Assembly: GCA_051294375.1 (NCBI GenBank)
Contig: CM119268.1
Span: 10,299,607-10,363,606 of the forward strand
Reading direction: 5' to 3'
DNA from: Paraspadella gotoi
Lineage: Eukaryota > Animalia > Chaetognatha
Length of the DNA stretch: 64,000 nt
Within the stretch, counting starts at the first letter, position 1. Each line of letters begins with the position of its first letter. The notes beneath the pieces are model-generated. The model was not told the DNA's origin. It was given only the letters and a program-made list of their open reading frames with translations, and searched no databases. Positions 10,593 through 50,300 of this stretch are shown here, piece by piece. Both the position numbers and the translations under genes were made by a program.

Positions 10593-10642
<50 letters not shown>

Positions 10643-11611: not shown

Positions 11612-11700
<89 letters not shown>

Positions 11701-11720: not shown

Positions 11721-11759
11721 CTCGCACTTTTCCATTCGTTTTGGAGACCAATCATAAGT

Positions 11760-18000: not shown

Positions 18001-18459
18001 CCTTTTCTGCAACCTGCATTTCAAATTTCTTTTTTTCCCTTTCAATATGTATTAAATAAAAAAAAATTATTTGAGAGAACAAATCGGGTGGAGGATTGCC
18101 ATTTGTAAGCCTTAGTTACCCCACTTTCCCGATCGAATTTTTAAATGAGGTTTTTTATCCATCTATTTGAGACATAACACTAAAACTTATAGTTTACTAT
18201 TATTTTTTTTTATTTTCTATTACAATTCTATGAATAAATATGAAATAATAAACTTTTTTAAAAAAAATTTTCATCTTTCAACCCTATATTTCAGTCATAT
18301 CTAAAAAACAAAAAAAAAGATTTCTTTTGCATGATATTTGGATATAACATATGAAACTATAACGTTTTTAAAAAATAAAAAAGAAATATTGAATAATGAT
18401 TTGAACAGTGAATTTTTTTTATGCACGAACAGTAACGTTAACCGCCCATTTTTCATGTG

Positions 18460-26971: not shown

Positions 26972-27234
26972 GACATCAAAACTCCTCCAATACCCCGCGG
27001 TCAATTTTTTTTCTTTTCCAGTTTTCCTGTTTTTTTCTTTAAAAACCGATGTAACCATTACCGGTTTTATTGTTTTTTTAAAAGATATTGAGGGCTTTTT
27101 CGAATTGTTTTTCTCACATAATTATTTACTTTCCCTTTAACTTCTTGCCCATGTCCACAATATGTAAAGTATTTCTTGTTTTACTTCTAGTCGTTTTAAA
27201 CGAAACCATGTACAAACGTTACTAAGCATGCGCG

Positions 27235-30200
27235 ATGGCGTTGTCTTCGTTACTCGCGCGGGATTCGACGCGTACGTCGGTAGATCGAGTGGTGGCGCTG
27301 ATTGACATGGATTGTTTTTACGTCGCCGTTGAAAGAAGATTGAATCCCGAGTTGATAGGAAAACCCGTCGCTGTCGTTCAATATCAAGCTTGGAGAGGTA
27401 TGGGGAAAATCAAAATCAAATGGGAGTGAAATGAAGAGAATTGTTATAACACAACTTGACTGACTGCGATAAATATTTGTTCATTTCATTAGTTGGAAAA
27501 ATCTAAAAATATATGTTATTACAGGAAGGACTACCGGGAGTTGGAATATAAAAAACGTCAGTGATTTTTTTACCAGAGTGCAAAAACTGAAGTTGTTATA
27601 ACAAATAATTTAGCCACAGTATTTGATCCTTTCATTTCACTCCCATTTGAAATCCGTGTAAAAACCCTTTTCACGATTTCGGAAAAGGATTTTTAAAAAA
27701 TCAATCCCAATCTTTCTTTTTTCTACAGGCGGAGGAATCATCGCCGTTTCATACGAGGCGAGAGCCTTTGGCGTGACCCGCAGCATGAGAGGCGACGATG
27801 CGAAAGCTGTCTGCCCTGACATCATCCTCTGTCGCGTTGAGGAATCCAGGGGTTGGTCCACTGAAGCTGGACGAACGTTTATTTATAAAATTTCGTAAAT
27901 TTTTTTCTCACCTTTTATTTTTAGGCAAGGCCAATCTGAACAAGTATCGCGAGGCGTCGGCGGACGTCATGGAGGTGATGAAGCGATTCAGCGACAACAT
28001 CGAACGAGCCTCGATCGATGAAGCCTTTGTGGATCTCACAGATGCCGTAGACGAAAGGATAAAGGTCGACCTTGTCTTGTTGTTTTTAGACGACGTGCTA
28101 TGTTAAACTATCTACTAATAAATAAAAGGCCTGTCGTTTCGCCTCTTCTACATCACTTCCAAAAACCTTCGTGGCTTGTTTCGGAGGCGAGGACGTTCCC
28201 AAAGACGCCTCGGTGGAAGATCGCGAAGAAATTCGCTGTCGTAGTGTCGACGTTTGGTTGAACAGTTTTTCAGCTGAGTCAACGCCTCCGCCAATTGATC
28301 TCCGCCTCGCAGTCGGGGCTGCCCTCGTTGAAGAGATGCGCGCCGCAGTCGCGTCCGAGACGTCGTTTGAGTGCTCCGCCGGAATTTCCAGCGGGAAGGC
28401 CTTCGCGAAGTTTGCCTGCGGAATGAACAAACCCAATAGGCAGACAGTCTTGCCTGTTGAAGCAGGTAAGTGGTAGGGTAGCAGCTTTGTGGACGTAACA
28501 ATTGTAACAAGGATATTTTTTAAAAATAGCACTATTATTAATCGTCGATTAATCGTTTTCATTCAGCTCTTGAAACTTTGTTTACTCGTCTGGAACTGAC
28601 TAAGTTGCGGAATCTCGGTGGTAAACTAGGCGAATCTCTCGTCGAGGAACTTGGCTGTCAATACATCACTGATCTTCAGCGGTACACCTGCGGTCAACTG
28701 GTACAAGCCCCTTTCATCTAGTGACTAAATTATGTGTTTATTTGCTACGTTAATACAAGGTCGAAAGGTTCGGCGAACGCCTTGGGATTTGGCTCCACGG
28801 CATCGGTCGAGGCTTCGATAACGAGCCAGTCACGCCGCGTCAGATCCCCAAATCTGTTGGTTGCAGCAAGAATTTTCGAGGACCGCAGGCGCTGAACACG
28901 AAGGATAAAGTTCGACATTGGTTGCTTCTATTGGCCGAGGAGTTGGTTGAGCGACTGGAAAAAGACAGGGAAGCTAATCACCGCATGGCCAAGGGAGGTA
29001 CTGCTTATGTCGCTGGAGCTAACTTCAACGCATCAAGGACCTTCAGCATTTCAGTTTACAATCACGAAAAAATTGCCACCGATGTTTTCAACGTCATCAG
29101 GTTAGAAATTGTGTTATCTTGACTTTGATCTTAACGATTTAGTTTACTATGTTAAAAGTTAAATTATCTTATGCAGCAAACTGAATGACTCGAATTCAGC
29201 TGGAACTCAATGGAAGCCGGAAGTAATTAATCTCGGAATCATCGCCTCTAAGTTTGAAGACTGTCTTGCTTCTAAGGTAAGTTCAATTCGAGTCAATGTC
29301 AAGCAACCATTCTTTAAAATAAATAACATGTAAAGAAAGCTCTTTCCATTTATGTATATTTATTATAGATCGTTTATTCTGTAGGACATAAACTTTAGTT
29401 GCCCGTTTTAATAATTATATTGAAAAAACATTTCCTACTGTTTTGTCCAAATTAATTCAGGGTGGAGCTTGCAGTTCGATCAAGGATTTTTTCTGCAAAG
29501 CAACGGTCACTAAAAAGAGCGACGAAAGTTGTGACGATGGGTCCGTGGACGATAGTGATCAAAATGCGCTGGACGCTTTGGCCAGCATGATTGAAATAGA
29601 TACAGATATGACCACAACCTCAACCATCCCGTCGAATCCAAAGGGCGCCTTGGAATTAGCTTTTGAACGAAGTAGAAACAAGCGGATCAGAGTGGATCAG
29701 AGTGCGGACATTAATTCCTCGCTTGAGCCAATGGTGTTACGAACGATGGGAAATGAGTTAAATGCCAACAATATCGTGGACGAAGCTGCTGGGGATGAGT
29801 CTGGAAACCAAGATGACTCTACTTTTGGTTCTTTCCTTCCCGTTTTTTCCTCTTGGTCCTCACTTACCCCTCAAGAGCAGAAAAAGAAAATCCGTCTTTT
29901 GTCCTCTCGGTCTTCTCTCGATCGAATGTCGTCTCTTAGTTTTTTCCGGCGCCGGTTAACCGACGCCGATGAGCATTCGACGTCGGATTTTCCCTCCTCG
30001 AGTCAAATCGATCCCGACGTCTTGGCCGCCTTGCCGGATGACGTCAAGGAGGAAGTTTTGCGGCAAACGATGCGTCGAGAGACTGACCGACCGAACAAGC
30101 ATCCGATCGCGGATAAAATCGTGGCCAACGAATCGGAAAACCAACGCTTTTTAAATGATATCCCTGCGTCGAAAGAAGCACCGGGGACAGACAGGGTGCG

Positions 30201-30468
30201 TTGTGAAAAGTGCGGCTCCGACGTCAGCGCCTTTGAATTTCCGGAACACGAAGATTTTCACTTCGCAGCTGAACTTCAGAAGAAAATACGTAAGGACGAC
30301 GCGCTAAGACGTCGGGAGACCTCTGGGCCCACCGCTTCGACGTCCGTCTCTCCCGCTAAAAAGTGCGGGGGCCTCAGAACTCGTGGGAGCAGGAGTCGTG
30401 GGAGAGGAACTAAATCTAGCTGTGATAACAACAATCAGGGACTGAATATAAAAAATTTTTTTGGCTGA
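27235..30468 (+). CDS. POLH: Y-family DNA polymerase eta (~8 exons)
   Basis: RVVALIDMDCFY, GIIAVSYEARAFGVTR, ERASIDEAFVDLT, CSAGIS, NKPNRQT, LGGKLG, PKSVGCSKNF, C-terminal UBZ (CEKC...EHEDFHFA) and a PIP-like NIKNFF. Confidence 0.95.
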
Positions 30469-30669
30469 TCAATTTACGTACGTTCTTCGTTACTGTTTTA
30501 CGTATGTTGCATATTATTTTCAGAAAGTGGGCCTTCTACGCGAATGAGGTGGATCTAAGATTCTGGTGCTTTTGTTTCAAGAACCTCCCACCAAAAGCGC
30601 CTTTTCGAAAACTTTCGGTCATCCGCAGTTATTTTTTAGTCACTCGCTTCTGTTAATTTTACCGCCAAG

Positions 30670-33600
30670 ATGGCGGAGCATGGGCGTCCACGTCCCTCGG
30701 ACGCTGGTTCTAGTAACGTCGCTACCGACGAGGACTTTGATGGAACATCACCCCCAGACATTGTTGATGGAGACGTCATCTCGGACAACGCCTCTCGACC
30801 CTCCGGAAGTCAAAACGTGACGGAATCGATGAGTCGCGGCGCGGAGACGTCAGCCGGTGGACCGGGGCCCGTCAATCTCGGCATGGCGGAAGAAGATGAC
30901 GAGGAAGATGAAGAAGACTTGGACGACTACCGGTAAAATGAGAGAATTGGATTTACTACATGACGAATCTTTCACTTTGTGATTCTGCACTGTGAAAATG
31001 CGGTTTACTTTTCTATTTGTACTCAGAGAGGATATGGTCGACATCATGGGAGACAGTCACGACGAGTCCGAACACATGTCCTCTGACGAAGACGTAGGCG
31101 GTAGCGACGTCGATGCTGGCGACGATGAACCCGAAGACGAGAACGACGATCCTGAAGAAACGGGGGAATTTAACCGACCTAAGGAAGGGGAGGCCCTTAT
31201 TGGTAACTTTTTTTTTAATGCTTTTTTCTCAATTTGACAAATTTCAGAAAAGTCGCAGAATATAATAAAATAATACGATAATGTTTAGATTGATGGAAAT
31301 TGGAAGGGAATTTTAAAAACGTTCAAAAAGCTTTGTTGTTTTGTCTATAAGTATAACCCCTTTTTATCTCGCCAGACGGGCAAATGCCCGACTTGGGCGA
31401 GATGTTAAATCGTTTCTGCTTTTTTTGACCATAGTAGTCGTTGTCACGCTGTTTTAATATTGAAAATAGCTCAAGTGTGTAACCATAAAAAGCTAAAAAT
31501 TTAGATATAGCTTTTAATCAGCAAGATCTTTTTGATTCACATGTTTCATATTTTTCAACTCATTTTTTTGTTTTATTTACGAAACAATTTATATATATAT
31601 ATAAACGAGTTTAGCTGTCCAGCTCTCTCTCTTTTTAAATACATGTATATGTAGCTCTCTCTTTTAATTATATGTCGTACTCTTTTTATCGTCGCAATCG
31701 CGTTGCGTTTGCGACAATCTCGTAACGCTTTTGGGCATAAGTGGCGTCGGCGTCGTCATCGTCATCGCTGGCGTTCCAAATTATAGATCGCCTTTTTTAT
31801 GATTAAATTTGGGTGTATAAGCTGAAAATTATATACAACTTCTCATCATCGATGTGCTTAAAATTGAGTCTGGACAGTTATTAAATGTTTTGTTTACGTT
31901 TTATCAATACAAACAAATTTTTTTCTTTTTATTTTCTATTTCTTCTCTCTCTTTTCTCTTTTAATTACATGTCTCTCTCCCTCTCTCTTTTCCCTAGTCA
32001 CTGATTCATAATCTAGTGAAAAAAAACGAGTCTGCAGCTGGCTCTGCAGGGGCTTATTCTTTTTCTCTCTTTTTTCTTGGCTGCTTCTGCCTTTTGAGAC
32101 TGCAGCTGGCTCTCAGGGGCTCTTTCTTTTTCTTTCTTTTCTCCTGCTGCTTCTGCTGCTGCCTTTTAATTTCTTTCTTTTTTTCTGGGTGCCTCTGCTG
32201 CTGAAAATGATTTGGCTTCTTTCTCTCTCTCTCTCTCTCTCTCTGATTAATTTTTTCCCTCTAAAAACTTTTATTATCGCCATTTATTCCCAAATTTATA
32301 TCCGAGATTTTGTGGATTTTTTTCGTAGATTTTTTTTTCTCAAATTTGATTTTTTTAGTATCAAAATTTGTCGTCAATCCAGATTTTTCTTATGCAATTG
32401 CGACATACTATTGATTTAAGATTTTCCATCATTGCTTCTTCTGATTCGTTATCTAGCTTTTTTTTTCTCTCTTTTTCTCTCTCACTCATACACGCATTTG
32501 TTTGTTTTATTTACGATGAATGATTATCATCACATCAATGAAAGACTATTATTGCATCCATCATTTTGTTATTATCATATTAATATTTGGTTATCATCGC
32601 ATCAATATTTGGTTATCATCGCAACAATCAATCAATATTACATCAATCAATCAATTATTATGATATTAATAATTCGTTTTTGTATCAATCATTTATTTTT
32701 TTTTATTATTTTTTTCATTAATTTTTTTTTATAGTAACGTCTGGCGAGATCACTCTACTTTTAAGATTTTTTTTCTTTAAGGCTGCAAGCATTATCGCCG
32801 AAGGTGCGCCCTCATCTGCCCCACTTGTTCCAAAGCCTACACCTGCCGGTTTTGCCACGACGAAGAGGAAGCTTCGCACGAGTTGGACCGAAAGTCCGTT
32901 GTTCAAATCAAATGCCTAGAGTGCGATCGGGTGCAGAAGGTATATTACAGTATATAAGTGAAGCAGTACGGAGTATTGTTAGTATTGTTGCGAGCGAACG
33001 TTCCACCATTAACAGACTTCCTCTTATTCAGGTTGAAAACTCTTGCTGCTCCTGCGGCGTCACCTTCGCCCTCTACTTTTGCGCCATCTGTCGACTTTAC
33101 GACGATGACGACAAAAACCAGTACCATTGCGACGGGTGTCAGATTTGCCGCGTCGGCGGCCGCGCCAACTTCTTCCACTGCTCCACCTGTGACATGTGCT
33201 TGGCCAACGAAATGCAGGACAACCACAAGTGCGTCGAAAAGATGTCCCGCTCCAATTGTCCCGTCTGCCTAGAAGACCTGCACACCAGCCGCAAAGCCTG
33301 CCGCGTGCCAAAATGCGGCCATATGCTTCATTTTAAGTGCATGCAACGCCTCCTCAAAACTGGCAACTACGCCTGCCCCTCTTGTAGCGTCTCAATGGTT
33401 GACATGACCTCGGTTTGGGAACGACTCGACTACGAGGTGGAAGCGACTCCGATGCCTGCGGAATACCGCGATTTCAAAGTCCAGATCCTTTGCCGCGACT
33501 GCCACCAAGAATCTCGCGCCCCCTTTCACATACTCGGTCAAAAGTGCTCCCATTGCGGCTCCTACAACACTTGCCGTGCCGCGGAGCCAGGCGGCTGCTG

Positions 33601-33973
33601 TGCAGAGGATATCAATGGCGATGCCGATAGCGAATCGTCTCTGGCGGCGACGGCGCAGGCGAACGCCGAAGACGCCGCTGCTGCCGCCGTTAGAGAATTG
33701 GGTCTCGCCGGAAGCGTCCGTGAGGACGGCGAGGAGCAAGAAGAGGCAGAGAACTTTCATCGCATGCGAGGACTCATACAAAGACTGACCGGTGGCGGAC
33801 GAGGCGGGAGCGGAAGCGACCGATCGAATCACCGACGAGACAATGACGAGGCAGGTTCCTCTTCTTCCGACGGTGGCGGCGCAAGCGGGGCGAGCGGTTC
33901 CAGTGGCTCACGCGACGGACCGAGCGGCGCCGCCAGAGCCCCATTGTATAGAGATGACGATGATTTCGACTGA
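30670..33973 (+). CDS. RCHY1: RING finger and CHY zinc finger E3 ligase (Pirh2) with acidic N- and Gly/Ser-rich C-terminal extensions; exons ~30670-30932, 31028-31202, 32782-32939, 33032-33973
   Basis: GCKHYRRRC...CRFCHDE CHY finger, CTCHY (YFCAICRLYDD..YHCDGCQICRVG), RING-H2 (CPVCLEDLH...CGHMLHFKC...CPSC) and zinc ribbon (CRDC...KCSHCGSYNT). Confidence 0.93.
31361..32762 (+). mobile_element. HINE-like element family A in RCHY1 intron 2
   Basis: T-run + subTIR ATCTCGCCAGAC (31366-31377) with an adjacent inverted TTGGGCGAGAT, and a 3' subTIR GTCTGGCGAGAT (32739-32750) + cactctactttt. The same ends occur at 37241/38012 and 53061. Confidence 0.8.
31683..32415 (+). mobile_element. HINE-like element family B nested in family A
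   Basis: T-run + ATCGTCGCAATCG...TTGCGACAAT 5' hairpin and a 3' tatgcaattgcgacat end. Homologous to 52661-54140. Confidence 0.7.
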
Positions 33974-34472
33974 AAAAAAAACCTTAGCCTCATTATTCTT
34001 TCTCGTGTTTAACTCCGCTCCGAACGCGCGCGTATGACATCTGCCGATCAATTACCTAAATCGTTTCTGCTTTGAATCTAAGCTGTGTAGGTTTTTAGAT
34101 TTTGCTCCGGTCGTCGATTTGATTTAAAAGACGTATAGTGAAATAATTTTCCGACTAAAATTTTTCACCGTCCTTCCCCCTAGCCTCAAAAAAGCACATA
34201 ACTTATTTCGCTCTTAATCACCATATTATTCTTTTTTTTATGCAGAGTTTTAAAGTAATTCTTTTTTTTTTTTGATAAATCACTCTCAAGGTGTTTCATT
34301 CCACTTCAATTAAAAATTTTTTTAGCTCTCGCAATGCCAAGTCATTTTCTTTTTTTAAAACTTTATGCTTTATTGTACGCGTCGATATTTGCGAAGATTT
34401 TTCCGCAGATCTGCTGATTGAGTGGCGTTGTTTTTTTTGAGGTCTTTGATTAGACGTACCTGCGCCCTTAAG

Positions 34473-35993
34473 ATGTCGACGGCGTCCGAGGAAAACTCAC
34501 GTGTTGTGGAGGAGGTCAAAGATTATTATGGAAAGCGGCTGCAGAAATCGGCCGACCTGAAGACGAACGTATGCGTGGTCGGCTCCCAGGGTGGAATGTC
34601 AGCGCGAGCGCGAGAAGCTATGAAACTCGTGCATACGGAGGTTAAACAAAGATATTACGGCTGCGGGACAGTTATTCCCGAAGCCATCGAAGGCGAGCAT
34701 CGAATGATAAGGGTTCACCGTTCGGGCATGTTTTTAGATTCTTAAAAAACATTAATAAAATAATTCGAGGTATAATACTAATGTCTCTAATCTGCTATCC
34801 GGACAGGTTGTCACATTCTCGACCTTGGTTGTGGTTCCGGTGTGGATGTATACGTATTATCGAAGCTCGTTGGTGCTAGTGGATTTGTCACTGGCGTCGA
34901 CATGACGCCGGAGCAACTCGAAATCGCTCGTCGGTACATTCAATATCACGCTGACGCTTTTGGGTGAGGGTTTTTTTTGGCGGAAATGATCTGAATCCCC
35001 AGCTGTCGAAAATATCGCGATGTTTTCCTTGAAGATTTTCCAAACCGAACGTGCAAATCCTCGAAGGGTGCATCGAGGATTTGGCTGCGGCCGGAGTCGA
35101 ATCAAATTCCGTCGACGTCATCGTTTCCAATTGCGTCGTCAATTTAGCCGCGGACAAGCGGCAAGTCCTTGCGGAGGCCTACAGAGTACTTAAGGACGGG
35201 GGCGAGATCCACTTTAGCGATATCTACGCTGACCAGGTTCCGTAACGCTTGGGAAGTTAGAGGGGGGATATGTTTTTCAGGAGCATCTTTGATGAAGTGA
35301 GAATTAATGTTTTTTTTTTTCTTTATTTACTAATTGTAAAAAAAGACCAAATAAACCACTCTTGTTAAAACCATACTTTCTCTTTCAGGAAGTTTCGGAA
35401 GACCTTCGACGGGATCCTGTCCTTTGGGGAGAATGCATCAGCGGCGCCCTTTACTGGCGACGACTTCACGACCTGGCATCGGAAGTAGGCTTCGCGCCGC
35501 CAAGGCTCGTCCGAGCCAACGGCTTCGACCTCGGAAATCCCGAAATGGAGGAGAAGCTTCGCGGTTACAAATTCGTTTCGGCGACTTACCGCCTTTTCAA
35601 AGTCGCAAAGGAGAAGATGGTAGGCGATCGGTTTCAAGTAGCTTACACGGGAGAGATACTGGACCACGAGGTTCGTATCGCCTTGAGCGGGACATTATCA
35701 TATACTGAGCGAACAAAATATTAAAAAAAAAAAATAGGTGGCTTTAATTTAAATTTATTTTCCAGGAGTCTTTCCTATTTGATTGCGACTTCACTTTTCC
35801 GTCCGGTTTCGTCGTCGAGGTCGACGACACAACGGCCTCCATTCTGATGGCGTCGAGATTCAAAGATGAATTTGAATTTCGTAAAGTCACGGAGGGAGCC
35901 GCACCCTCGGACTCGTCACTCCGAGATCCCTTCCAATTGCCTTCCGGCGGTTCCGCCTCTGCCTGCTGCTCGACCGGTGGCAAGTGTTGCTGA
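34473..35993 (+). CDS. AS3MT: Arsenite methyltransferase (5 exons)
   Basis: VKDYYGKRLQKSADLKTNVC, RYYGCG, ILDLGCGSG, GVDMT, DVIVSNCVVNL, GGEIHFSDIY, LWGECISGALYW, FVSATYRLFK and a Cys-rich end ACCSTGGKCC*. Confidence 0.95.
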
Positions 35994-36202
35994 GCTGTGA
36001 TCTCTGTGAACTCAGTCGCGCTTCTCACGCCTTTACTAGTCATGAAAGAAAAATAATTTCAATTGGCATTGATTCCACTTTTTGTAGCGCTCGTTATAAG
36101 TTTCATGCGTATTTTTAAATTTGTTTGTTATGGTTTTTAGGATATCCAGCGATCTCTTTCTTAAAAAAAAAAAAAAACATATATTTTCGAGTAATTGACG
36201 AA

Positions 36203-38167
36203 ATGAACGTGCTCCCGGAGCATCCTCCTTCTTTCTGGAGCAACGGACCCGCGCCGGGCCAGTTACATCAATTTCCCGGGGTGCCCTCCGTCCCTGATCT
36301 CGGCGTCCAGCGGACTCAATATCCCTCGACGCAGGGAACCTCCGTTTTGGGTATCAAGTTTGACGGTGGCGTCATCATCGCCGCCGACAAACTCGGCTCT
36401 TACGGATCTCTGGCTCGATTTAGGGGCATCTCCAGAGTTATGAAGGTATGCTCATAGTGTTGAACGTATTACGATTGTCAAACGTTAATTGTTTATGAGA
36501 ATGTACGAAATATGGCTCTCTTGATGAATGATGAATGAAATTAAAAATTCGATTGGAAATATCATTTGTGATGGTTTTTTCTTTTATGTAAATCTTTCAT
36601 CTGATATAAAAAAAAATTCGATAACGCTACAGGTTAATCCGAAGACTGTGATGGCGGCGAGCGGCGACTACGCTGACTTTCAGTTTCTTCAAGACGTTGT
36701 CGAGCAACGTGTTATCGACGAGGAGTGCCTCGACGACGGAATTCAATATACGCCTAAAGTAAATTACAAAGTTTTTAATTGTTTATAATATTATTTTTCG
36801 GTGAAATTTAAACTTTATTCCGCTTATTACAAGGCCTTGCATTCTTGGCTGACTCGCGTTCTTTACAATCGTCGATCGAGGTTCAATCCTCTCTGGAATT
36901 CCATCGTCGTAGGGGGAGTTGAAAACGACGGTTCAACTTATTTGGGAACTGTGAACATGATTGGTAAGCCTCGTCTGAAGTGATAACGAGATTGTAATTT
37001 TTACTTATTTCTACCTCATTTCAGGTATCGCCTTCAAGGACAACGCCATCGCTACGGGATTCGGCGCCCATTTGGCGCTGCCAATGATGAGGGATGCTCT
37101 AGAAAAGAAGCCTCAACTCACGGCCCAAGAGGCCAAAGACCTCATCGCCAAATGCATGGAAGTGTTGTTCTACAGGTAATAAAGTAACTGGTCAATGGTC
37201 ATTAAAAAAATGACAAATTTGTGAATTGATGTTTTTTTTTATCTCGCCAGACGGACCTAGGCCCGTCTTGGGTGAGATAATGGATTAATATTGCTTCTTA
37301 GTGACGTCATCGTTATCGTTATCACACTTTTTTAAAAATGTTTATAATTGTGAAAGTGTATATTTGTAAGAACTTAAAAATTATAAGTTTTATATGAATT
37401 TAAATATTTTTTGTTTTAATTTCTTTCATATTATGATTAACAGTAATATGCAAATATTAATATATAGTTTTTTTCCATCGCTGCTTTTTCTGATTCGTTT
37501 AAAAATTAGTTCTGCAGCGGCTGGACTTCTCTCTTTGTCTTTTTTCTCTCTTTTTTTCTCTCTTCTGATTCGTTTAAAAATGAGTTCAGTTCCGCAGCCC
37601 CTGGACCTTCTCTTTTTCTCTCTTTCTCTCGCTCTCTGATTTAAAAAAAAAGTTTTTAGGATCGTGCTCGTGACGTTAATCATGGCAGTCGTGTATGTTA
37701 TTATTATACCGATTTTTATTTTGTTTTTTCTTTTCCCCTCATTTTCTCTCATTTTTTATCTCTTTATCTTTAATTCAGTTCATATTTTTAAATTTATTTA
37801 TTCAATGTCATTTATTTATCTCAATTCTTTTATTATTATTTTTAATAAATTTAAATTTAATTCATTAATTTTAAATTGGTTATCAAATCATCAATAATTA
37901 GTTATCATCGCATCAATAATTCATTATTATTGTATCAATAATCAATTACTATCAATCATTCGTTTTTTTCCGGATTTTTTCATTAATTTTTTTAGTAACG
38001 GATTGGCGAGATCACTATACTTTTATGATTATTTGTATTCCAGAGACGCTCGGTCTTTCGACGTCTACGAGACGGCCATCATTACTTCTCGCGGCGTCGA
38101 GGTCGTTCCTTCCATTCCTGTCAAATCGAATTGGGACGTCGGTCAGGCGATCAAGGGTTACGAGTGA
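36203..38167 (+). CDS. PSMB4: Proteasome subunit beta type-4 (beta7), 5 exons
   Basis: [83 protein letters not shown], ends IKGYE*. Confidence 0.96.
37232..38024 (+). mobile_element. HINE-like element family A in the last PSMB4 intron
   Basis: T-run + ATCTCGCCAGAC (37241-37252), gcccgtcttgggtgagat, and a 3' end agtaacggaTTGGCGAGAT cactatactttt (to 38024). Confidence 0.8.
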
Positions 38168-38422
38168 CGTATTTTCGTGAAAAAGACGATATAAAAAGTC
38201 TGAATGATTCTGCCTAGTATCCCACGTTCGATTCTTTAGGCGTATTGCTATTGATAATATTTTCCTTTTTTTTTTCATCCTATTATTATCATCGTATTAT
38301 CTATTTTTTTCCACTCTTAGTTTTTTTCTTAAAAAAACAAAAATACCAAAGAATCAAAAGGCAACTTTCCAAAACTTTTTCCAAAAAGCCACTAAGAAAT
38401 TAACCGTATAAAGTTTGTGAAA

Positions 38423-40338
38423 ATGTCACTTATGAGTAAAAAGCCGCTGAAGCCTTTCGGAGAGATCGATTCTTCTTTGAAGGAATTAGCACCCACGTAC
38501 AGGTAAGGTATTTTTTTATGACTGAAAAAGTAGATTATTTTGTGTGAACAATCAACGCAGAAACCATGACGGATTTTTGATGCCCATGGGGATGAGCGAA
38601 GACAATATGAAGTCAGCGTTAAATTACCAAGCTGAAGAAGATGACGTCTTCATTGCGACTTATCCGAAATGTGGGACAACTTGGATGCAGGTAACGGCTA
38701 TTTTTTTTAAATGTACTTAGAAACTAAAGTTATTCATGTATTTCAATTTTTGGTTTCTTATTTCATGGCGTTTCAGGAAATTAATTGTGGTAAGTCTAAT
38801 CCTTTTTTTTTCGTGGTTTCTGTGATTTTATTTTTACTTTTTGTATTGCTGCACATTTTGTATTTCTGAGTTCCTGAATTATTACAATTTTTGCCAAATT
38901 CTTTTCTTTTTTTTGCGTTTGACTTTTTGAAAAAATGGTTTCAAAGGGCAAAACCGGATAAAAACGTTTTTTCTCCGCAAACATTGAATAATTATTATAA
39001 AATTGATTTTATTATGAATTTTTACGAAATTTGCTATAATCGCTATAATCGACTCTCTAAAATACAGTCATAGTTTATACACAACCGTTAAGATCAGGGG
39101 TCGACGCGCGAATCTTCTTCTTCATCCTGTTATCGTGTCCTCTTCCTTCACAGAGCGACGGTTTCTCTCATTCTAGATTTCACTTCTCCTTTTCTCTGTA
39201 ATTTTTGATATTTTTCTGGACTCTCTCAATACACGCTTTCACCATTATTTCTCGAGTTCTTCTTCAAACAGAGTCTTATTTCAGTCACATTATTTTATCT
39301 CTTATTTCTGCAATATCATCTCCCCTTTTCTGATTTTTCATCAGTACGTCCTCTATCTGTTGAAAAACAAAGGCGAGCCTCTTCCCGCGCGCGGGAACAT
39401 CTCGATTGAGGCGCCTCATTTGGAGGAAATGGGTGGCGAGTTTATCGCGAGCTGCTCTCAACCGCGAATCATTAAGACTCACCTGCCTTTCGACTTGGTG
39501 CCTTGGAACGATAAGGCCAAGTGAGTCACTTTTTCTGTTTTTTTTTTTTTTTTTTTTTTTGGTCCGAAATGTTTTGACTTCGACTTTCAATTAAAATGAA
39601 GATACGTGTGCGTGGCCCGCAATCCTAAAGACTGCGTCACGTCGTTCTATTATCACACAAAGAACTTCGTCAACCATTACTCATTCAAGGGAGACTTCTC
39701 GGTTTACTTCGAGTGTTTCCTCGCGGGATACGTCGACTTTAACTCGTGAATATCGACCAATAATTCACTCTATGGTCACTTCCACAGGAAAATTATTTAT
39801 TTTAAATTGAAATTTATAGTTACTTCGATCATCTTAACTCGTGGTACGAAGAGCGGAATAAAGCCAATGTCCTGTTCCTCACCTACGAGGAGATGAAAGA
39901 GGATCTCGCTCAATGCGTCAAACGACTGGGCGAGTTTTTGGGCGGCGAGTGGGAATCCAATTCAAAGGATGAGGCTGTTGTTAAAGCAATTCTGAAGGTA
40001 CCGAATGACTCAGCCCGCTCCGAGTTTTTTTTTTCCTCAAATCGGCTACGATAAAAAGTATAAGGAATATCGGCTTTGTTTTACTTACCCAGCTCGGTAC
40101 ATGGTAAGTCGGTTTTTTTTCTCGAATCCAGCATTCCGATATCTCTTCGATGAAGTCGGATCCTTCTAAATGGGTTTTCACAGCAAACGACCAATTTATA
40201 CGAAAAGGGATCGTCGGCGACTGGAGAAATCAGCTGACTCCCACCCAGTCGCGCCGACTCGACGAAAAGTTTCGTCAAGAATGCGGGAATACAAGCGCTA
40301 TCCGACTCTGGGAAAAGTATGGTATTCCGGAGATGTGA
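38423..40338 (+). CDS. Cytosolic PAPS-dependent sulfotransferase (SULT1/SSU-like), 6 exons
   Basis: 5'PSB motif DVFIATYPKCGTTWMQ, IKTHLPF, 3'PB motif VARNPKDCVTSFYYH, FLTYEEMKEDL and C-terminal FIRKGIVGDW. Confidence 0.92.
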
Positions 40339-40504
40339 TACTCTTTCTCGGATTAGTACTTTTTTTAATCATCTCTTACACTTTCAACGTTCTAAGTGCC
40401 AAATGTGAAATTTTTAATTTCTTGCTTTATCTTTCTTTATCTCTGAGTTTTATTTTAGTTATAAATTAAAGCTTTTTAATTAAAGATCATCCAAAAAAAT
40501 TGAA

Positions 40505-41716
40505 ATGGAGCGATTGGGACATGATGGCGATGCGGCAGTATCACGGTTTGATACTGCTTGGTTTTCCCGTCGACTCAGCGCCGACGTCGTGTCTGTTGAT
40601 TGGGGCGATACTGTAGTCGCTGGTTTCGTCAGCGGTATCAAAAGGGTTCGGGTTATCACGCGAAGCGGTGAGACCATGGCCCTTGTCCTAAAAATTCTTC
40701 ACGAGGGCAGTTCGGTTGACCGCCAAACCGTAGTGTCGCTCGGCGTTGCTCGCGAAGCCGACTTTTATAACTTCCTGGTGGTTTTGCCGCCGGACCAGCG
40801 TGCCGCCTTTGATGCGGTTCTTCCACGCGTCTATTTCGCCGAAAGCGACTGGAAGACTGGGATGAAGACCATCATCCTGGAAGATTTGAGCGACGATAGC
40901 AACGGAAGGGGATTGAATTCCGGATACTTTTTTGGTCCTGGAAACCCAATCAACTGGAACAAGGATTTGGTGGCATTGACGGAATCATGTCCCGATGTCG
41001 ATGCTGAAATGGTTGCACTTGTCAGCTTTTTGTCCCTCGCCAAAATCCACGCCTGCTTTTGGCTTCAAGACGACTTGCTGGAAATTCCTTGGCTTCACTG
41101 GACCGGTTGGATAAAGGGAGAAAATCAGGAAGGATGGGAACTGGCGATGGACCGTTCACGTGAGGCCTTTCAAAGGATGAAATCCGCTTTAGAGGCGGGT
41201 ACTTACCCGCACGATATTCCGTCGGAACTTTTTCGTTGCGCGGTTAAATCTTTTGGTAAATTGACTTGGAAAGATTTTCGAGAAGAAATAAAAACGACTC
41301 AGTGGACTTTTGTTCACGGTGATTTTCATCCGGGAAATATAATGTGGATGAAAGATAGTGGACAAGTAAAGTTTCTCGATTGGGAAATGGTAGGGGTTTC
41401 CAGCGGCCCACAGGAACTGGGTCAGTATGTGATATCTCATATGGATATCAACAAGTACGGCAAGCAAACCCATGAACGTTTGGTGAGGGCTTATTATGAA
41501 GAACTGATTAGAGTCAGTCCAAACTTAAAAGCAAAGTTTCCCTTCGAACTCTGCTGGCAAGAGTTCGTTTATGGGGGCTTCAGAAAGTGGTTGTGGATGA
41601 TGCCCAACATGGGCGAGTGGTTCCCGGCTGCGATTCCTTTTTTTGTTAGTCAAATTGAAGGGTTTCGTCGAATTCACGAGATTGATGAAGAAAAAGTTGG
41701 GTTTCCGAGGTTGTAA
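40505..41716 (+). CDS. Intronless protein-kinase-like small-molecule phosphotransferase (APH/choline kinase/EcKinase fold), 403 aa
   Basis: LVLKI, READFY, IILEDL, Brenner motif HGDFHPGN and metal-binding DWE, all in a single uninterrupted ORF. Confidence 0.85.
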   Translation: MERLGHDGDAAVSRFDTAWFSRRLSADVVSVDWGDTVVAGFVSGIKRVRVITRSGETMALVLKILHEGSSVDRQTVVSLGVAREADFYNFLVVLPPDQRAAFDAVLPRVYFAESDWKTGMKTIILEDLSDDSNGRGLNSGYFFGPGNPINWNKDLVALTESCPDVDAEMVALVSFLSLAKIHACFWLQDDLLEIPWLHWTGWIKGENQEGWELAMDRSREAFQRMKSALEAGTYPHDIPSELFRCAVKSFGKLTWKDFREEIKTTQWTFVHGDFHPGNIMWMKDSGQVKFLDWEMVGVSSGPQELGQYVISHMDINKYGKQTHERLVRAYYEELIRVSPNLKAKFPFELCWQEFVYGGFRKWLWMMPNMGEWFPAAIPFFVSQIEGFRRIHEIDEEKVGFPRL

Positions 41717-41876
41717 CTTTAATAGCTTGATTATGGGATGGCTAATGATATTTATTTTTAATGCCAAATTTTATGTTAATTTGTGATCAATAATTACTAA
41801 TCAGCTAATTAATCGTTGTATGACAATTTTCAGACTATTTTTACATAATTTGGTATTAACATTTCCGAACTGTCTA

Positions 41877-44800
41877 ATGCATCGTAAACGCAAGTCCTAT
41901 CCACGTGGAGACCACGACCAATATGCGGCGAAATTGGCGGAGGAGAGCCGCATCCTTGCGGATGTTACTATTGATCACGAAACCGCAAAGCAGGAAGCGG
42001 CGCGTCTCTTCGAAAAAGTCTTTGACTACGGATCCGACCCAGAGTGGACCCTAGCTCAGAATGTCGTGAGTTTTGGTGAAATACATACCCTGCTCAGGGA
42101 AAAAGTTTCTTTAAATGAGTTATTTTCACGTAGGAATTTCTCCGTCGAAGAGAAGATGAACGGGAATCGCGCACGGCGATAAAACTTCGTTTGATGTCGG
42201 CGAAGGAAAAGTTGATCGCCACTAAAACGGAGCTCAACGACTCGGCCATCGAGGAGTGGCGTCGCTTCACTAACTCCACTCATCGCGGTGGCCGAGTTAT
42301 TAATGACGTCCGCCGCAGGTGCTGCGCTGAGCTTCCGACGCAGGTTAGCGACAGGGGGCCCTATTTATTGCAGCTCGCCTTTTAAAAAATAAAGGCTATT
42401 GATTTCAATTTCATTCACTATTTTCCCCCCCGAAGGCGTGGTGCAAATTTCGAGAGATTCTGGTCCTCATCGGTGACTCAATTCCCGTAGATTGGACGTC
42501 GTCGTCTTCTTCTTTTTTTTCAGTCCCTCACGATATTAACTCGATTTCGACCGATCTTCGAAACTCTTCGTCATCGTTCAACGATTTCCCGTACGCTTCG
42601 ATCCAATTCCCAGACTCCTCTCCCGACCGCCCCCCTTCTGAAAGCTCTTCCACGTTTCTGACCGGACCTGCATCGAATAACGCTCAGCTCGAAACTTTTC
42701 ACCTCTGCGAGGCGCCGGGCGCCTTTATCGCCAGTCTTAATCACTACCTGCTCAACAGAGATTATCGCGGTGACTGGCATTGGACCGCCAACACCATGAA
42801 CCCATACCACGAAGGTAAATTGAAAGTCTTGGAAGGAAAAATCTTCTGTTTTTTCTCAATCCTTATTAAATTATACAGCGGAATATTTGGATAAGATGAT
42901 TAATGACGACCGACTTATTTACAACACTCTGTCAAGATGGGAATTCGGTCCGTCTAATGTTGGCGATATTATGGACCCACTGACTCTTAAGGCGCTTATA
43001 AGGCGAGTCAATCGAGCATCCACCGACGACGATCCAGACGGCTTGCATCCACCCACTCCGGTAAAACTATTTGGCATTTTATTATTCTAAACAGAAACGC
43101 AACGAAACTGAAAGGATTAATTATAACTTAAATGAATTTTCCAGTTTGGCACTGACGGTGACCTTTCCTTTGGCGTCCATCTCGTAACAGCGGACGGGAG
43201 TGTAAGCTGTGCCAATGACCCCGCCGAACAAGAGAGTACTGTTGCGTCTCTTCACTGGTGCGAAGCGGTCGCTGCCTTTAGTATCCTTAAAAAAGGTAAG
43301 TCGTTAACATTTGAACTTTGTTAAAAGAAATTAAGTTGACCTTTCCCCAGGTGGTTCGCTTGTCCTAAAGATGTTTACGCTTTTCGAAGACTCTTCAATT
43401 TGCCTTTTGTATCTCCTCAACTCTCTTTTCAAGCGAGTCCGCGTCGTTAAACCGGCAACGTCCAAGGCGGGAAATTCCGAATGTTACGTCTTAGCGGAGG
43501 TTTTCATCATCAGACCTCATAGATTTTCCCAGTATCTGCCTCTTATTTTTTTTTACGCATTTTTGATTATTTCGCCAAGGTTTTCAACGATCGACTTTGG
43601 TTGAGCCTGTTAGCCAATTTCCTTCGCCCCCACTACGGCTTGAACCTGGCATCTCAAGCAGTTTCTTTAATTCTAAATTTGGTGCCCGAGTCTTTTATGA
43701 AGAGACATTTTGAATGCGTCGAGACTTTCAAGGTTATCGCAATTGCATTAAAGATACCGATATAATGATCACCCCAAATTGACCTTTCGCTCCCTCCTTC
43801 AGAATTGGCAAACGAGTCACATCGAAGAGAACATCGAGCTTCATGCGAAGTCATTCCGCTCTCCGTCCGAATTCGAAGCCGAAATGAATCGAGTTCGCCG
43901 TGTGCAGATCGAAGTCTCGCGTCTTTTCTTCGCTCGTGCTAGGCTCAAGGTGAATTAACTTAACTTAACTTGCCTAATCATCGCTTGGCTCTTTAAAATC
44001 ATAAGCTTCGTAGATTCGTAGATTTATTTGTATAAATGAGACTTATTGTACTAGGATTATTCTCCCTCTTTTCTAATTTAAATATTTAATACTATGATGT
44101 TCCATAATTATTTAACAGTATAGATACGTAGATGAACTTTTAATAATTTGCGTATTTTGTAGGCCATTTCCCGAGATCACCACCTTGCGCCCACAAGGGT
44201 CGTGTCGCCAGCCCACTCCATCTCTCCGCACAACTCACTCGAAGGAAGTTATAACCAGAGACGCGAAGAGGCTCTGTTACCCTGGACCCAAAGAATCAAA
44301 ACTGTTATTCCTAAGGTTAAATTAATTTCCGCTAACCTTTTTGTTTTCATTCGCCAAGAGGTTTATTTTTCTGTTTCCTCCTATTCCCCTTATAGGACTA
44401 CACGAAAGTTGCTATCCCTTTCTCCGCTTCGTGGGTACGAAACTATGAACAAACGCCATCCCCCGCGCTTCTATGTCACTTTCGCAAGAACTGCTTCATT
44501 TATGGGAGTCGCTGTGATACTGTGAACAATTCGTTATTCATCGATCCGCAGTCCACGAGAGATTGGCACCTCGCAGTTGACTCTTCAAGTTTTCAATCCC
44601 GTCATATCTATGGCGTTGACTCCATGGTAAATGCTCAGAACGAGAATTTCTCTAATTTAATCTCCTGAGGTCAATCGCTATTTCAAAGAGAAGTAGCGAG
44701 GGTTTTCTCGCTCATTTAATTTAATAAGTACACCAAACACACAAAATAGTTGCTGGCCAGTGGCGATTAAAAGTTCAATCTAATCCCGCGTTTTTTGTTT

Positions 44801-46016
44801 TTTTTGTTGTTGTTTTTGTTTTGTTTTGTTTTTTTGTTTAGACCGTCAGCAACATCAATGACAAGTTCGTGGACGAGTATTCTAAGTACTTCACGAAGTC
44901 TACAAATCTATTTGAGTACATTCTACCCGAACTTTCTGAACTCGCAGATTGGCAAGTAGTGGAGCGACACCGCTCTTTTCTAAATAAGGTATTTATTTTT
45001 TAATTTCTTGAATATTGATGGAGATGATTTTAAAATCACGAGTAATTTTTTCGTTCCCCCACTCCCTTCAGGGTGGTCAGGTCATCTACTACTTTTCTTG
45101 CGTCGACTTCGCCGCCGTATCTGCCGCAGGCGGACTTTCTCTTGAAGAATCAACTTCGCCGCCTCTCATGCTTTCGCTTTTAAGGCGCTTGTTCGGCGTC
45201 GACGGCGCCTGCCCGCCTATTCGTGGCTCGCACTTGTTGCTGCATCTACCCCCGATCATGTCGCGATTCTCTGCTTGTTTCGTAAATTTCGTCGCTTCTT
45301 ACTTTGACGTGTGGTCATTGGGCACTGCCGACAATCTCGTAGACTTTACTCATCGGTGCGAATTCGAAGAAGACTTAGAACGGTGCGGGAGCTCCCTGAG
45401 CTATGCTTCCCAGCTCCCGTCCTTCTTTTTCTTTGGGGCCTCGTTTCGTTTAGATCGGGGTTCTGACAAAGACGACGTTGCTTTAAAAGCCGCGAAAGAA
45501 TTCGTGACTGCTTTAGAGAAGAATGTTACTAGTGGAATTGTTCAGACAGAAGATCTTGAAAGTAATGAGATTGATTCTAACTCGGTTAAGTACAAACCAC
45601 CTGATCTCGGCGTTGTAATGCAAGACTTGGTGCGATCCGCTAAGAGGTCGGAGTCGTTTAATGAACCAAGAAATGAAGAAACGGAGGCGATTTCGGACAT
45701 GGTGGTTGGCGGCGTTACCAATAATACACCTGTAAAAAATACTTCGTTTTCTCGTGCTGAGTCTTTGTCAGTTGCAACAACGTCAATGTTGACTTCGATA
45801 ACTCCCGAAGTTTCCAACTCTGCCGACGAAAGATTTCATCTTCTCCAGTTCTTGCCTTTAGATAAGTTGAGCTCGCCGAGCTTTCTGTGCCACCTTCGTT
45901 CAACCAACGCAGCACTGATGCAGAAGCGGCTCAACTTTCTCATCGAGTTGGAGAGGACTGTAGACGAAGCCTCAAAAGGCCTTTCAGAGAAAAAACCATT
46001 GGTCCTACCTGAATAA
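41877..46016 (+). CDS. CMTR2: Cap2 mRNA 2'-O-methyltransferase (CMTR2/FTSJD1), ~12 exons
   Basis: [68 protein letters not shown] (K-D-K-E tetrad). The C-terminal half is divergent. Confidence 0.9.
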
Positions 46017-46229
46017 CTCCAAAGCAAGTTTTTTCTCTTCTCTTTATTGATCTGTGATATTTTGTCAAATAATGTTCACCGAAGAATAATGCAATTTGTT
46101 GTTTCGCTTTTCGCATCGCCGGAAAATCTGTTCAGTTACAAAGTTTTATTATTTAACTTTGACGAATATCTTTTTTATTTTAGGTTAAGATTTATATTAT
46201 ATATACATATATTTATTTACTGAGTTACA

Positions 46230-47089
46230 ATGCGGCCGTTGGTCAGCCGTCTCGCAGGATGTCCAGCATCCATGGCTTTCGCAGCCGCCTCGGTTCCAGT
46301 AGCTGGCGGTGTGTTTTGGGTGTCTACGCGCGGCTTCTTCCGCTCGGCGAAGGCGGCATCCGGCTCCGGCCTTCCTCGCGTTTTCTTTGACGTTAAAGCG
46401 GACAACGAGGACATCGGCCGAATTGTCATCGAACTGAGGTCCGACGTTGTACCAAAGACTGCCGAAAATTTCCGGCAGCTGTGCACTGGTAAGAAAGATT
46501 TACGATACGATTTATCGTACTTCTTCCAAAACTTTACAACTCGTTTTTCAGGCGAAGCGGGATTCGGCTATAAAAACGCTCCTTTTCACCGCATCATTCC
46601 GGGATTCATGTGCCAAGGTGGAGACATGACCCGTGGGGATGGAACAGGGGGTAAGAGCATTTACGGCAACAAGTTCAAGGACGAAAACTTTAAGCTCAAA
46701 CACACGGGACCTGGAATCCTCTCCATGGCCAACGCGGGTAAATCCAGTGGGCGGATTGTTTGCTTTCTTCATTTGGTCGAGCTAAAACATTTTCTTTCTC
46801 CGCAGGACCGAATACGAACGGAAGCCAATTTTTCATATGCACTGCCGTGACATCGTGGCTGGATGGCGCCCACGTCGTTTTCGGTAGCGTCGTTGAAGGC
46901 ATGGAGGTTGGTCTCCTTGACTGTTGCCCGTGGCGCAATGTTGAAAAGAGCATATCGATAATGTCATTATATGGACAGGTCGTAACAAAAATGGAAGCCC
47001 TCGGCAGCCGCAGTGGGCGGACGAGCCGAAAAGTTTGGATCAGCGACAGCGGGGAACTTGCTACCGAAAAGAGAGCTGTCGAGGAATGA
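46230..47089 (+). CDS. PPIF: Mitochondrial cyclophilin (cyclophilin D-like PPIase), 4 exons
   Basis: Arg/Ser/Ala-rich presequence, [66 protein letters not shown]. Confidence 0.85.
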
Positions 47090-47314
47090 AAAAGACAGAG
47101 CCGAGAATTTCGTGTCTAAGTTGGAAGAGCGAATTTTGTGCGGAAACTAGTTGTCGAGTCATCGGTTAATTTACTTGACTGATTGGCTCTCGTTTGTTAT
47201 AATGAATGTTTTTGTTTGAAAAAGAATGAAAATACTTTAGCGCTCGACCAGAGTCGAGTGTTAAGCGTGATGATCGCGTCAAGATGATCAAGAGAGAGCC
47301 GTCGCTTTTAAGTC

Positions 47315-48937
47315 ATGAGGAGAGGTCTTCGTCATTTTGCCGGCGTCCTCGCCGCAGAAACACATTCTCCGGACTGCGTAGCATTGGCGGCCGCGTTGAC
47401 ATGTGACGTCGCGTCTCGTCGGAGATTCGCTTCATACAGCGACGATCATTATGTAACTCTGGGCGTGCCCGAAGACGCTACGCCGCAGGAGATCAAGAAA
47501 GGTAGGGTAGGTGCCTTTGGTTCGTTACAGAAACATTAGTAATAGAATTTTCGTGCTTTATTCTAGCATTCTACACCCTTTCTAAACGCTGCCATCCCGA
47601 TCTTCACTCCGAAGATAAAGCGATGGAGGAAAAATTCAAGAACCTCTCTATCGCCTACGAGGTTTTGAACAACCCTCAAAAGCGGCGGGCGTACGACGTT
47701 GATTTACGTGGGAGTCGACCGGCTAGGAGATGGAACCAAAAGATCCAGCACCCCGCCGGTTAATGAAAAAATATTAAATTGAGATATGGCTAGAAAAAGT
47801 CGATAAATCTTTAACAAGTACACAAGTAATTAAGTCAAATACTAACTCCTATTTTGCGACTCATATTCATAACTATTTGGATGAAATTATTACTCAGCGA
47901 TGAACCGTCAACTTCAGTACTCCTTCACCGGTGCGGATTACGCTGCATGGCGCGAGAGACGTCGACGAGCGGCGATGAACGAAGACGACCAATATAATGA
48001 CTGGACCGACGAATGGATCAAATATCAGCGGAGAAAAATGTGGGAGAGGATGGACCTGGACCAGGACGAGCACTACCGAGGTCGCGCCACGATGAGGGAC
48101 CAATGGAGGTAAGAACCAGGTCGGTGGTTGTGGCAGTCGAGTTGTCTTGACTTTACGATTAAACTGGCGCTGATTCTTTCAGATGGAATGAAGATCCCGA
48201 AGACTTCTTTAAAGGACGGATGGATGAAAAATATACTGAGAGGTTTCGAGAAAAGGAGAAAGATTGGGTAGGTTCAAGTCATGGCCGTATTAACTATTGC
48301 ACCGATCTCACGTTAAATCACTTGACGCAATTAGATCGCGCTTTATCCGGTCGCCGTCATCGTCTTCATCGTGATCTACGTATATTTGGAATATCGTTTC
48401 CGGGACTCGCCGGACCTGTCGGTCGTGGCTCCACCAGTCGTGAAAGTGGTTTCGCATAAAACAAACTCGGAAACGGAGCGGGAGAGAAGGGAAGCGCGGG
48501 AGAGAAGGAAGGAAGAGGAGCGGATCGAGGCGGAAATTAGGGACGCAATTCGAAAAAGACGCAAAAAGATACGAAAAAAGGAGCGCGTTGCAGAGAAGAG
48601 TAAGGAGACGGATTTGAAAGACCCCGCGGCGACTGTCATCGCCACGTCTGGGGTTGCGGACAGAGAGTCGAGCGATTGCCACGACGCGCCTCTGGAGGCC
48701 GAAACCCCGACGGACTATTCGATCGTTGAGCCGGCGATTTCGAATGTTGCGCCGACTGATTTGAGCGTTGAGCGTACGGATTCGAACGTCCGGCCTGAGG
48801 ATACGACCTATACGTACGATGAAGAAAAAGATTCTCCTCTCGAAAAATCTTTTCGTGATAACGTTGTTTTTATTGACGGACAATTGGAAATGAGTGGATT
48901 ATTTTTTAGACGCTCGACGTCGTCAAGACCTGCATAA
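47315..48937 (+). CDS. J-domain (DnaJ class C) protein with a probable mitochondrial presequence and one TM helix (DNAJC4/DNAJC30-like), 5 exons
   Basis: DHYVTLGVPEDATPQEIKKAFYTLSKRCHPDLH...AYEVLNNPQKRRAYD; hydrophobic IALYPVAVIVFIVIYVYL; charged coiled-coil tail. Confidence 0.82.
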
Positions 48938-49203
48938 TTGGGGCTATACTTTCATTATTTATTTTCGCTATACATACAATTGTTTTTAGTTTCCATAAAA
49001 GTTGAAGACAATAATAAATTAAAGAGTAAAAATAAGAGAACTTGAATGGATTATTTGAAGAGAATTATTATGAACAATAACTATTAACTATGATTCCATT
49101 CGTCGCATTTTTTGAATTATTTCCATTGACAATTTTGCTATTTAAATAAATCTACCAAAATTTTAGTTCTAGTGTTAAAACGAGACTTTAAAGAAAGGAA
49201 AGA

Positions 49204-50300
49204 ATGAGCACTTTGCGCCTGCAGAAACGGCTTTCGGCCGCTGTGCTGAAATGTGGCAGGAACAAAGTATGGATGGACCCCAACGAGATCAACGAGATCG
49301 CTAATGCTAATTCAAGACAGGTTATTCTTGTTAAATTTTATTATCGGTCTTTATACTAGGCCGAACTCGTTTGTACTAAAATCTTTAATTTTTTTTTCTG
49401 CAGAACATTCGTCGACTGATCAAGAATGGTCTGATCATTCAAAAGCCGCAGGCCGTCCATTCGCGCGCTCGTACAAGGAAGAATGCGCTGGCCCGCAGGT
49501 ATGCTGTATGTTTTTCGTAAAATATATTCCTTCGGTGTAAAAGAGATAGCCAGTGACAGAATATCGAGAGTTTCTTATTTTAAATCTCAGGAAAGGTCGT
49601 CATTCCGGACCTGGAAAGAGAAAAGGAACGGCCAACGCTCGAATGCCCGTCAAGGAGCTTTGGATGAGGAGGATGAGAGTCCTGAGGCGGCTACTGAAAA
49701 AGTACAGGGAGAACAAGAAGATTGACAGGCATCTGTATCACGAGTTGTACGTCAAGTGCAAGGTTCGATTTTTCCCAGATATCGATACGACAACATTACG
49801 ATGAATAGATGATTCATAAATTTTATTAGCGAGTGTACTTTTCAGTTTTGGGAGAATAATTTATTCTTATCTCGCCAATTAAATTGAAACAATAATTACA
49901 TTTATTGGGGAGACTTTTTAAACTTTTTAACACAACCTTTCATCGTATTTTTTTTTTCAGGGTAACGTTTTTAAAAACAAGCGTGTGTTGATGGAGTTTA
50001 TCCATAAGCGAAAGGCGGAAACCCTTCGTTCCAAGCAGTTGGCCGACCAGGCTGAGGCCAGGAGAAACAAGACGCGTGAAGCTAGAAAGCGCCGGTAAAT
50101 GTTTGAGGTTTTTACATCAAAACGTATTTTGTCGATAATTTGGCATTTCGAATCCCGAATCTCCCTTTGTGAGTCTTTTGATAATTAATGTCGATTTTAT
50201 CATTGCTTTTCGTTGATTCCGCAGAGAGGAACGATTGGCGGCGAAGAAGGCCGAGTCGCAGAAGATCTACGCGAAGGAGGATGAAGCTTCAAAAAAATAA
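49204..50300 (+). CDS. RPL19: 60S ribosomal protein L19 (eL19), 5 exons
   Basis: [68 protein letters not shown]. Confidence 0.97.

Follow-up and report, generated by a model that had tools for sequence, protein, structure and literature searches.

The 64-kb window, by which we mean the whole stretch of DNA analysed here, carries an intronless gene (40505..41716, +) encoding a 403-aa small-molecule kinase of the APH/choline-kinase fold (P0001), as judged by open reading frame call, Pfam, structure model and fold comparison. The gene belongs to the host genome and is transcribed, and sequence comparison places its product in an unnamed subfamily of microbial eukaryotes. The explanation that we consider best as a whole, and to which we give about even chances, is that an intron-free kinase gene passed long ago from a protist into the animal lineage, that its expression would be driven by the promoter of the gene run around it and that spliced-leader trans-splicing at 40458 would release its own mRNA.

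The reading frame opens with an ATG at 40505, is closed by a TAA at 41716 and encodes 403 aa uninterrupted by stop. An intact frame of this length with the motifs HGDFHPGN and DWE had been described in a preceding sequence-only reading, and both motifs were confirmed, at residues 271-278 and 292-294. Eleven same-strand genes were modelled between 20142 and 50300 with RNA joints as a guide, the first three by eye. Across 17,565 coding nt, the ten other than the kinase have 58 introns, a density of 3.3 per kb, compared to none in the kinase, and at this local density a stretch of 1212 nt would lack an intron by chance with a Poisson P of 0.018. Since four of the ten neighbours have long exons (1533, 1008, 945 and 942 nt), the absence of introns is just a mild anomaly. 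The earlier description of the kinase as the sole intronless gene of 14 holds among the 11 modelled genes; the remaining three, beyond the modelled run (from about 51739, 57900 and 62591), have GT..AG introns as judged by eye. Both GC3 (0.505) and codon fit (0.002) of the kinase are the lowest among the 11 genes and near the range of the others (0.533-0.636 and 0.018-0.098, respectively).

Pfam reported EcKL (35.5 bits, cut-off 22, residues 261-337 alone) and APH (32.3 bits), both in the C-lobe with its catalytic segment. The structure model, based on a 122-row alignment, reached a pLDDT of 94.9, and the leading rows for this model in VIA-align and Foldseek were all two-lobed and kinase-like, with the APH/choline-kinase fold. 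The fold comparison gave corramycin phosphotransferase 8agy (Z 18.3, rmsd 3.9, 299 residues aligned), N-acetylhexosamine kinase 4ocj (Z 17.5), and methylthioribose kinase 2olc and choline kinases (Z 17.2), with rmsd values of 3.9-4.6 across about 300 residues for the leading matches. Methylthioribose kinase and PsiK took the first ranks in Foldseek, and PsiK (9eto/8zic) was also the strongest profile match (E 4e-7, in the catalytic segment); a PDB search with the single kinase sequence found nothing below E 0.27, and every NCBIfam profile scored far below its cut-off. The solved enzymes share the fold over the whole chain, but identity is 7-15%, the top rows are tied and none is an orthologue.

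The catalytic set K63, E84, D273, N278 and D292 is complete in the kinase and invariant or nearly so among the 122 aligned proteins. Lys63 (40691..40693, +), which we take to be the ATP-binding lysine, is K in 120 of the 122, and the Arg83-Glu84 pair downstream of it is invariant. D273 and N278 of the catalytic loop HGDFHPGN (41315..41338, +) are found in 122/122, and D292 of the metal-binding DWE (41378..41386, +) is likewise invariant. The subfamily signature GYFFGPGNPINW at residues 140-151 (40922..40957, +) is also well kept, with G140 in 118, F143 in 110, G144 in 116, P148 in 106, N150 in 119 and W151 in 105 of the 122 rows. The fold matches together with the retained catalytic residues predict an active small-molecule kinase of the APH/choline-kinase type, which would phosphorylate a metabolite hydroxyl by means of ATP-Mg. 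The fold search names no substrate, since antibiotic, sugar, choline and steroid kinases tie. As the long signature and many aromatic residues are kept across distant eukaryotes, we think it more probable that the substrate is a single conserved soluble metabolite or a compound of the diet than that the enzyme serves broad detoxification.

The kinase resembles the EcKLs (PF02958), which are small-molecule hydroxyl kinases, in passing the Pfam cut-off and in its catalytic motifs. The EcKL match is, however, limited to residues 261-337, whereas members of its own subfamily match over the full length with 200-240 bits. EcKLs are mainly arthropod proteins of hexapods and crustaceans (PMC10859841). 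Among the named homologues of the kinase from the word-index and profile searches there was no arthropod protein, and hence there is none in the trees; the Atlas clusters closest by features, a comparison made without alignment, include arthropod-rich ones. By these comparisons the subfamily appears to be distinct from the arthropod EcKLs.

Related proteins numbered 92 among 3957 candidates in the word-index search and 100 among 7498 in the profile search, and the cluster-representative search gave 800 at E<=0.001 and 173 at E<=1e-30, with the best 150 of the 800 listed. Identities to the subfamily are 31-40%, with the best at 35-40%, and all relatives are about 40% identical or less over the full length. 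By name 29 relatives were checked, in the representative search just 14 out of an initial list of 129 proteins, and most matches are nameless. The named full-length-type members are Artemidia, Guillardia, Hanusia, Cylindrotheca, Nitzschia, Polarella, Epipyxis, Bryopsis, Nolandella and Geranomyces and, among holozoans, the choanoflagellates Didymoeca and Diaphanoeca and the sponge Sycon ciliatum. By group these 13 are a diplonemid, two cryptophytes, two diatoms, a dinoflagellate, a chrysophyte, a green alga, an amoebozoan, a chytrid, two choanoflagellates and one sponge, that is, 12 of 13 are non-animals; a 152-aa fragment labelled as fungus in one cluster and a weak Sphingobium match (20%) were excluded from this count. 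One family member from a metagenome has a reading frame that is open under the ciliate code only.

Bilaterian, cnidarian or further animal names were absent among the word-index and profile matches. A control search of the same collection with SPT6 gave 807 matches, and of the 120 listed, every one with a name was animal. As Sycon escaped the word-index searches, little weight attaches to the lack of animals among their matches, and further animals may be present among the nameless matches. Intron-bearing orthologues spread widely across animals, which the sequence-only reading had named as the finding that would speak against it, were looked for and not found, and the family has one named animal member. 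The scan of prokaryote genomes gave at least 108 relatives among the 600 pattern matches listed, the best with E 3e-10 over about 120 residues and none at full length, and the virus scan gave 5 matches among 34. A bacterial source of the kinase was rejected on these short, weak and partial matches and on the NCBIfam scores, and a viral source was rejected as all 5 viral matches were weak and partial. Of the earlier comparison with phosphotransferases from protists, fungi or bacteria, the protist type was supported and a bacterial source was not. No report on this subfamily was found within the papers searchable here, and no solved or assayed member was found; we flag it as an unnamed, well-conserved kinase subfamily of eukaryotes.

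The origin of the kinase was approached by trees of 196 of 225 rows (length filter), of 45 hand-picked rows under a mixture model with quick search, and of 30 and then 29 of these under LG+G4. In every tree the kinase sits on a long branch (1.13-1.74, the medians being about 0.6) and lacks a supported sister. AU tests, for which groups were drawn after the earlier trees had been seen, gave a p-AU of 0.394 for the kinase with the diplonemid and the diatom. All holozoan rows as one clade were rejected (p-AU 0.019), which indicates that the family departs from the species tree. In a score test for transfer, made on the 45-row comparison, the best named protist scored 224 bits and Sycon 206, a margin of 18 bits and a log E ratio of 15.5, below the usual cut-offs of a 30-bit margin and an alien index of 45. 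Of the transfer criteria of PMC3273482, an anomalous distribution was found, as were the absence of introns and integration in the host. Among lineages branching around the host, the family occurs in the sponge and the two choanoflagellates, and the host has no close relative in the collection, its best SPT6 identity there being 65%. Since the family looks mobile and rare in animals, we favour an old transfer from a protist, at roughly balanced confidence. Any such transfer would be old, because identity is at most 40% to all relatives and codon use is barely off that of the neighbours.

Vertical inheritance would instead make this an old kinase kept by choanoflagellates, calcareous sponges and the host lineage and lost in most other animals, with introns that were lost or originally few and with ordinary rearrangement into the gene run. 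The members in Didymoeca, Diaphanoeca and Sycon are what this predicts, and a clade of the kinase with the Sycon group was not rejected (p-AU 0.267). The kinase also pairs with Diaphanoeca in two trees (the 196-row tree and one LG+G4 tree), but it carries a long-branch warning there and is left undecided by the mixture-model tree. The host lineage is poorly sampled: in a 40-row SPT6 tree its branch measures 0.67 compared to a median of 0.19, and it falls outside the sampled arthropods, lophotrochozoans and deuterostomes with no resolved position. Such a long host branch would account for the long branch of the kinase too, and the 940-1530 nt exons in four neighbours make an intron-poor native gene less exceptional. 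On the other hand, many independent losses across well-sampled animals would be required, holozoan monophyly was rejected, and the Sycon clade, which is placed near a green alga (SH-aLRT 81-92), could itself be a separate transfer. We regard vertical descent as a substantial possibility, somewhat short of probable; it would make the kinase a relic gene that most animals lost, which is less surprising and still useful. The horizontal transfer put forward in the sequence-only reading keeps its support from distribution and host integration, and is tempered by the small score margin, by the unrejected Sycon grouping and by the presence of the family in sponge and choanoflagellates.

Contamination or mis-assembly, with protist DNA fused into an animal contig, would explain a protein of protist type, and bears on data from nine sequencing runs of one organism and three studies that contain the stretch, four of which were examined as contigs only. 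The lone DNA contig over both kinase junctions (39571-44787) comes from run X1, which may be the source of the window itself, and no long reads were found. Against a fusion stands X9, taken as RNA because it omits GT..AG introns that the DNA runs keep; it is from a different study than X1, and its RNA nature was judged from splicing and not from run records. A single spliced X9 contig of 3373 nt runs from SULT exons 3-6 through the spacer, the entire kinase and the following spacer into the first CMTR2 exons, and thereby crosses both junctions, with RNA-like coverage unbroken by joints over 40130-42065. An X5 contig (40493-42011) from a DNA run of the third study crosses the 3′ junction. Read depth over the kinase also matches the flanks in three DNA runs (X1 102-106 and about 100; X5 19 and 15-22; X6 17 and 11-16). 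The reading of the kinase as an artefact is thus largely refuted and its probability is very slight. A retrocopy whose intron-bearing parent lies elsewhere in the genome, and which was rescued by its insertion into the gene run, would suit an intron-free gene in a genome with 3.3 introns per kb and a spacer too short for a promoter. However, the four runs reveal no further copy with at least 92% identity, depth being flat and variant letters absent at 40505-41716, no poly-A remnant is present downstream of the stop, and a protist-type parent would itself need explaining; this origin appears improbable.

The gene run into which a transferred kinase would have been inserted comprises 11 same-strand genes (20142..50300, +; gene models and Pfam) in the order SPT6, Y-family polymerase, RCHY1-like, methyltransferase, proteasome beta subunit, SULT, kinase, CMTR2-like, cyclophilin, DnaJ and RPL19. 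The domains are from Pfam, and the names AS3MT (for the methyltransferase), CMTR2, PSMB4, RCHY1 and PPIF are our presumed assignments. Coding sequences are separated by 160-499 nt, with six of ten spacers below 250 nt and nine below 270 nt. The upstream neighbour is a sulfotransferase of 304 aa with 5 introns (38423..40338, +), and the downstream one an FtsJ-type methyltransferase, presumably CMTR2, modelled with 1011 aa and 11 introns (41877..46016, +); both rest on gene model, Pfam and RNA joints. The distances of 166 and 160 bp to the neighbours given earlier are correct when counted from stop to ATG. The upstream spacer (40339..40504, +) is 166 nt long with 24% GC and 46% T, and contains none of the six common donor hexamers; the downstream spacer (41717..41876, +; 160 nt) has a TTTCAG ending at 41833, 44 nt ahead of the next ATG. 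An X9 contig of 2606 nt adjoins that of the kinase and joins AS3MT, PSMB4 and the beginning of SULT in spliced form and includes the two spacers between them, although contigs spanning several genes are no proof of a single transcript. The run is likely to be a co-transcribed operon, in which trans-splicing likely takes place.

At the head of the run SPT6 appears to have an intron in its 5′ UTR, with a donor near 19942 and an acceptor near 20041, which fits the expectation for the first gene of an operon. By inspection a gene-free stretch of about 12 kb (8000-19800) precedes it. The observed/expected ratio of coding CpG lies between 1.14 and 1.56 across the 11 genes, suggesting little gene-body methylation, and low gene-body methylation has been tied to trans-splicing lineages (PMC12460157).

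A candidate trans-splice acceptor, TTTTATTTTAG (40448..40458, +; motif scan), lies 47 nt ahead of the kinase ATG. In shuffles of this spacer TTTYAG appears in 33% and the longer T-run form in 2.3%, and an acceptor matrix trained on the 58 intron acceptors skips TTTTATTTTAG, the best score in the spacer being 2.9 (shuffle p=0.92). The motif is weak alone and gains weight solely from its recurrence at a similar distance in other spacers. TTTYAG is located 25-70 nt ahead of the ATG in six of ten spacers compared to 0.86 in shuffles (0 of 2000), the distance window having been picked post hoc, and at any spacer position in 7/10 compared to 3.7 (p=0.03). In all six spacers every upstream ATG precedes the acceptor. 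The intron-trained matrix gives no preference for spacer sites. X9 contigs show neither a loose end nor a splice joint at 40458. The earlier claim that the kinase has an acceptor of its own thus stands for motif and position and is not backed by the matrix or by a loose end; the leader anticipated on its transcript was not seen on the X9 contig, contigs being the only material. Trans-splicing of the kinase mRNA at 40458 nevertheless seems likely from the pattern across the run.

Two X9 contigs start at possible acceptors. That of spliced cyclophilin-DnaJ RNA (46184..46190, +) begins with 34 non-genomic letters that meet the genome at 46189, where the G of an AG lies, and that of spliced RPL19 begins at 49167, the first base past the AG of an ATTTTAG acceptor (49160..49167, +) as read from depth bins. 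The 34-letter end, a candidate leader, occurs once, on the cyclophilin contig, and no non-genomic 5′ letters are listed for the X9 contigs of RPL19, kinase, CMTR2 or DnaJ. It is absent from the 64-kb window at up to 3 mismatches and from the text of searchable papers. Since 35 letters presumably exceed what a 31-mer graph would usually retain of a shared leader, it may be an allele or a chimera, and leader, allele and chimera are all candidates. By eye, a short hairpin can be made out in it, as can 9 letters in a row that are complementary to the acceptor immediately upstream. A low-depth X9 contig at 49894, in RPL19 intron 3, has a loose 5′ end of 25 letters. A search of the window against Rfam gave zero matches.

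The mechanism of capture aided by trans-splicing has a published precedent in Hydra flp, a gene of unicellular origin that lacks introns and lies behind RFC140 in the RFC140-flp operon, and for which PMC3273482 proposes that a foreign gene is expressed at once from the upstream promoter via the operon. As there described, flp is like the kinase in being intronless with patchy unicellular relatives, in lying a few hundred bases behind an intron-rich housekeeping gene, and in having a T-rich spacer and its own acceptor (PMC3273482). In contrast, leader and promoterless spacer of flp are proven by experiment in that account (PMC3273482), whereas the kinase has a candidate acceptor known from sequence, and its X9 contig shows no leader. 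Moreover, the sponge and choanoflagellate genomes examined at the time had no flp (PMC3273482), whereas the kinase family was found in both groups; and flp stands behind RFC140 while the kinase is inside an 11-gene run. If the transfer is true, the kinase would be a second animal instance of the flp route, a promoterless foreign coding sequence expressed, here inside a long housekeeping run.

Operons of Paraspadella gotoi are described in PMC12460157 as housekeeping genes less than about 250 bp apart, including ribosomal and proteasome genes, and resolved by trans-splicing. The kinase run is similar in its housekeeping content, its short spacers and its combination of RPL19 with a proteasome gene. 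It differs in that the longest chaetognath operon given there has nine genes (PMC12460157), whereas 11 are counted here by CDS spacing, with the six spacers below 250 nt. The long operon-like run may outweigh the kinase in importance. One may speculate that all features combine. A host without close relative in protein collections would then have an 11-gene trans-spliced operon that exceeds the nine-gene maximum of PMC12460157 and uses a leader of ~35 nt absent from the searched papers; in the middle of the operon, with sulfotransferase and arsenic-type methyltransferase genes close by, a protist kinase from a pan-eukaryotic subfamily that is uncharacterised would serve as a phase II enzyme, expressed from the outset. 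We consider this full combination doubtful.

The Sycon protein (XP_065177867) and three nameless proteins (together P0105, P0007, P0011 and P0015) form a 100% clade in the 196-row and mixture-model trees, near Bryopsis, and two proteins of this clade were called as whole ORFs on contigs of 316 and 461 kb; the kinase of this clade is possibly a separate transfer into calcareous sponges. Intron 1 of the AS3MT-like gene (34693) has a GC donor and is spliced in X9. A high-copy intronic repeat family occupies three introns (31365-32760, 37230-38020 and 52640-53480), and repeat depth in X1 is up to 23,000 at 37236-38169. Beyond the modelled run, the gene at 51739-55461 has a predicted membrane segment and, by eye, a death-domain-like tail with no Pfam match, and is followed by a gene with ankyrin and death domains and then by an HlyIII/PAQR gene.
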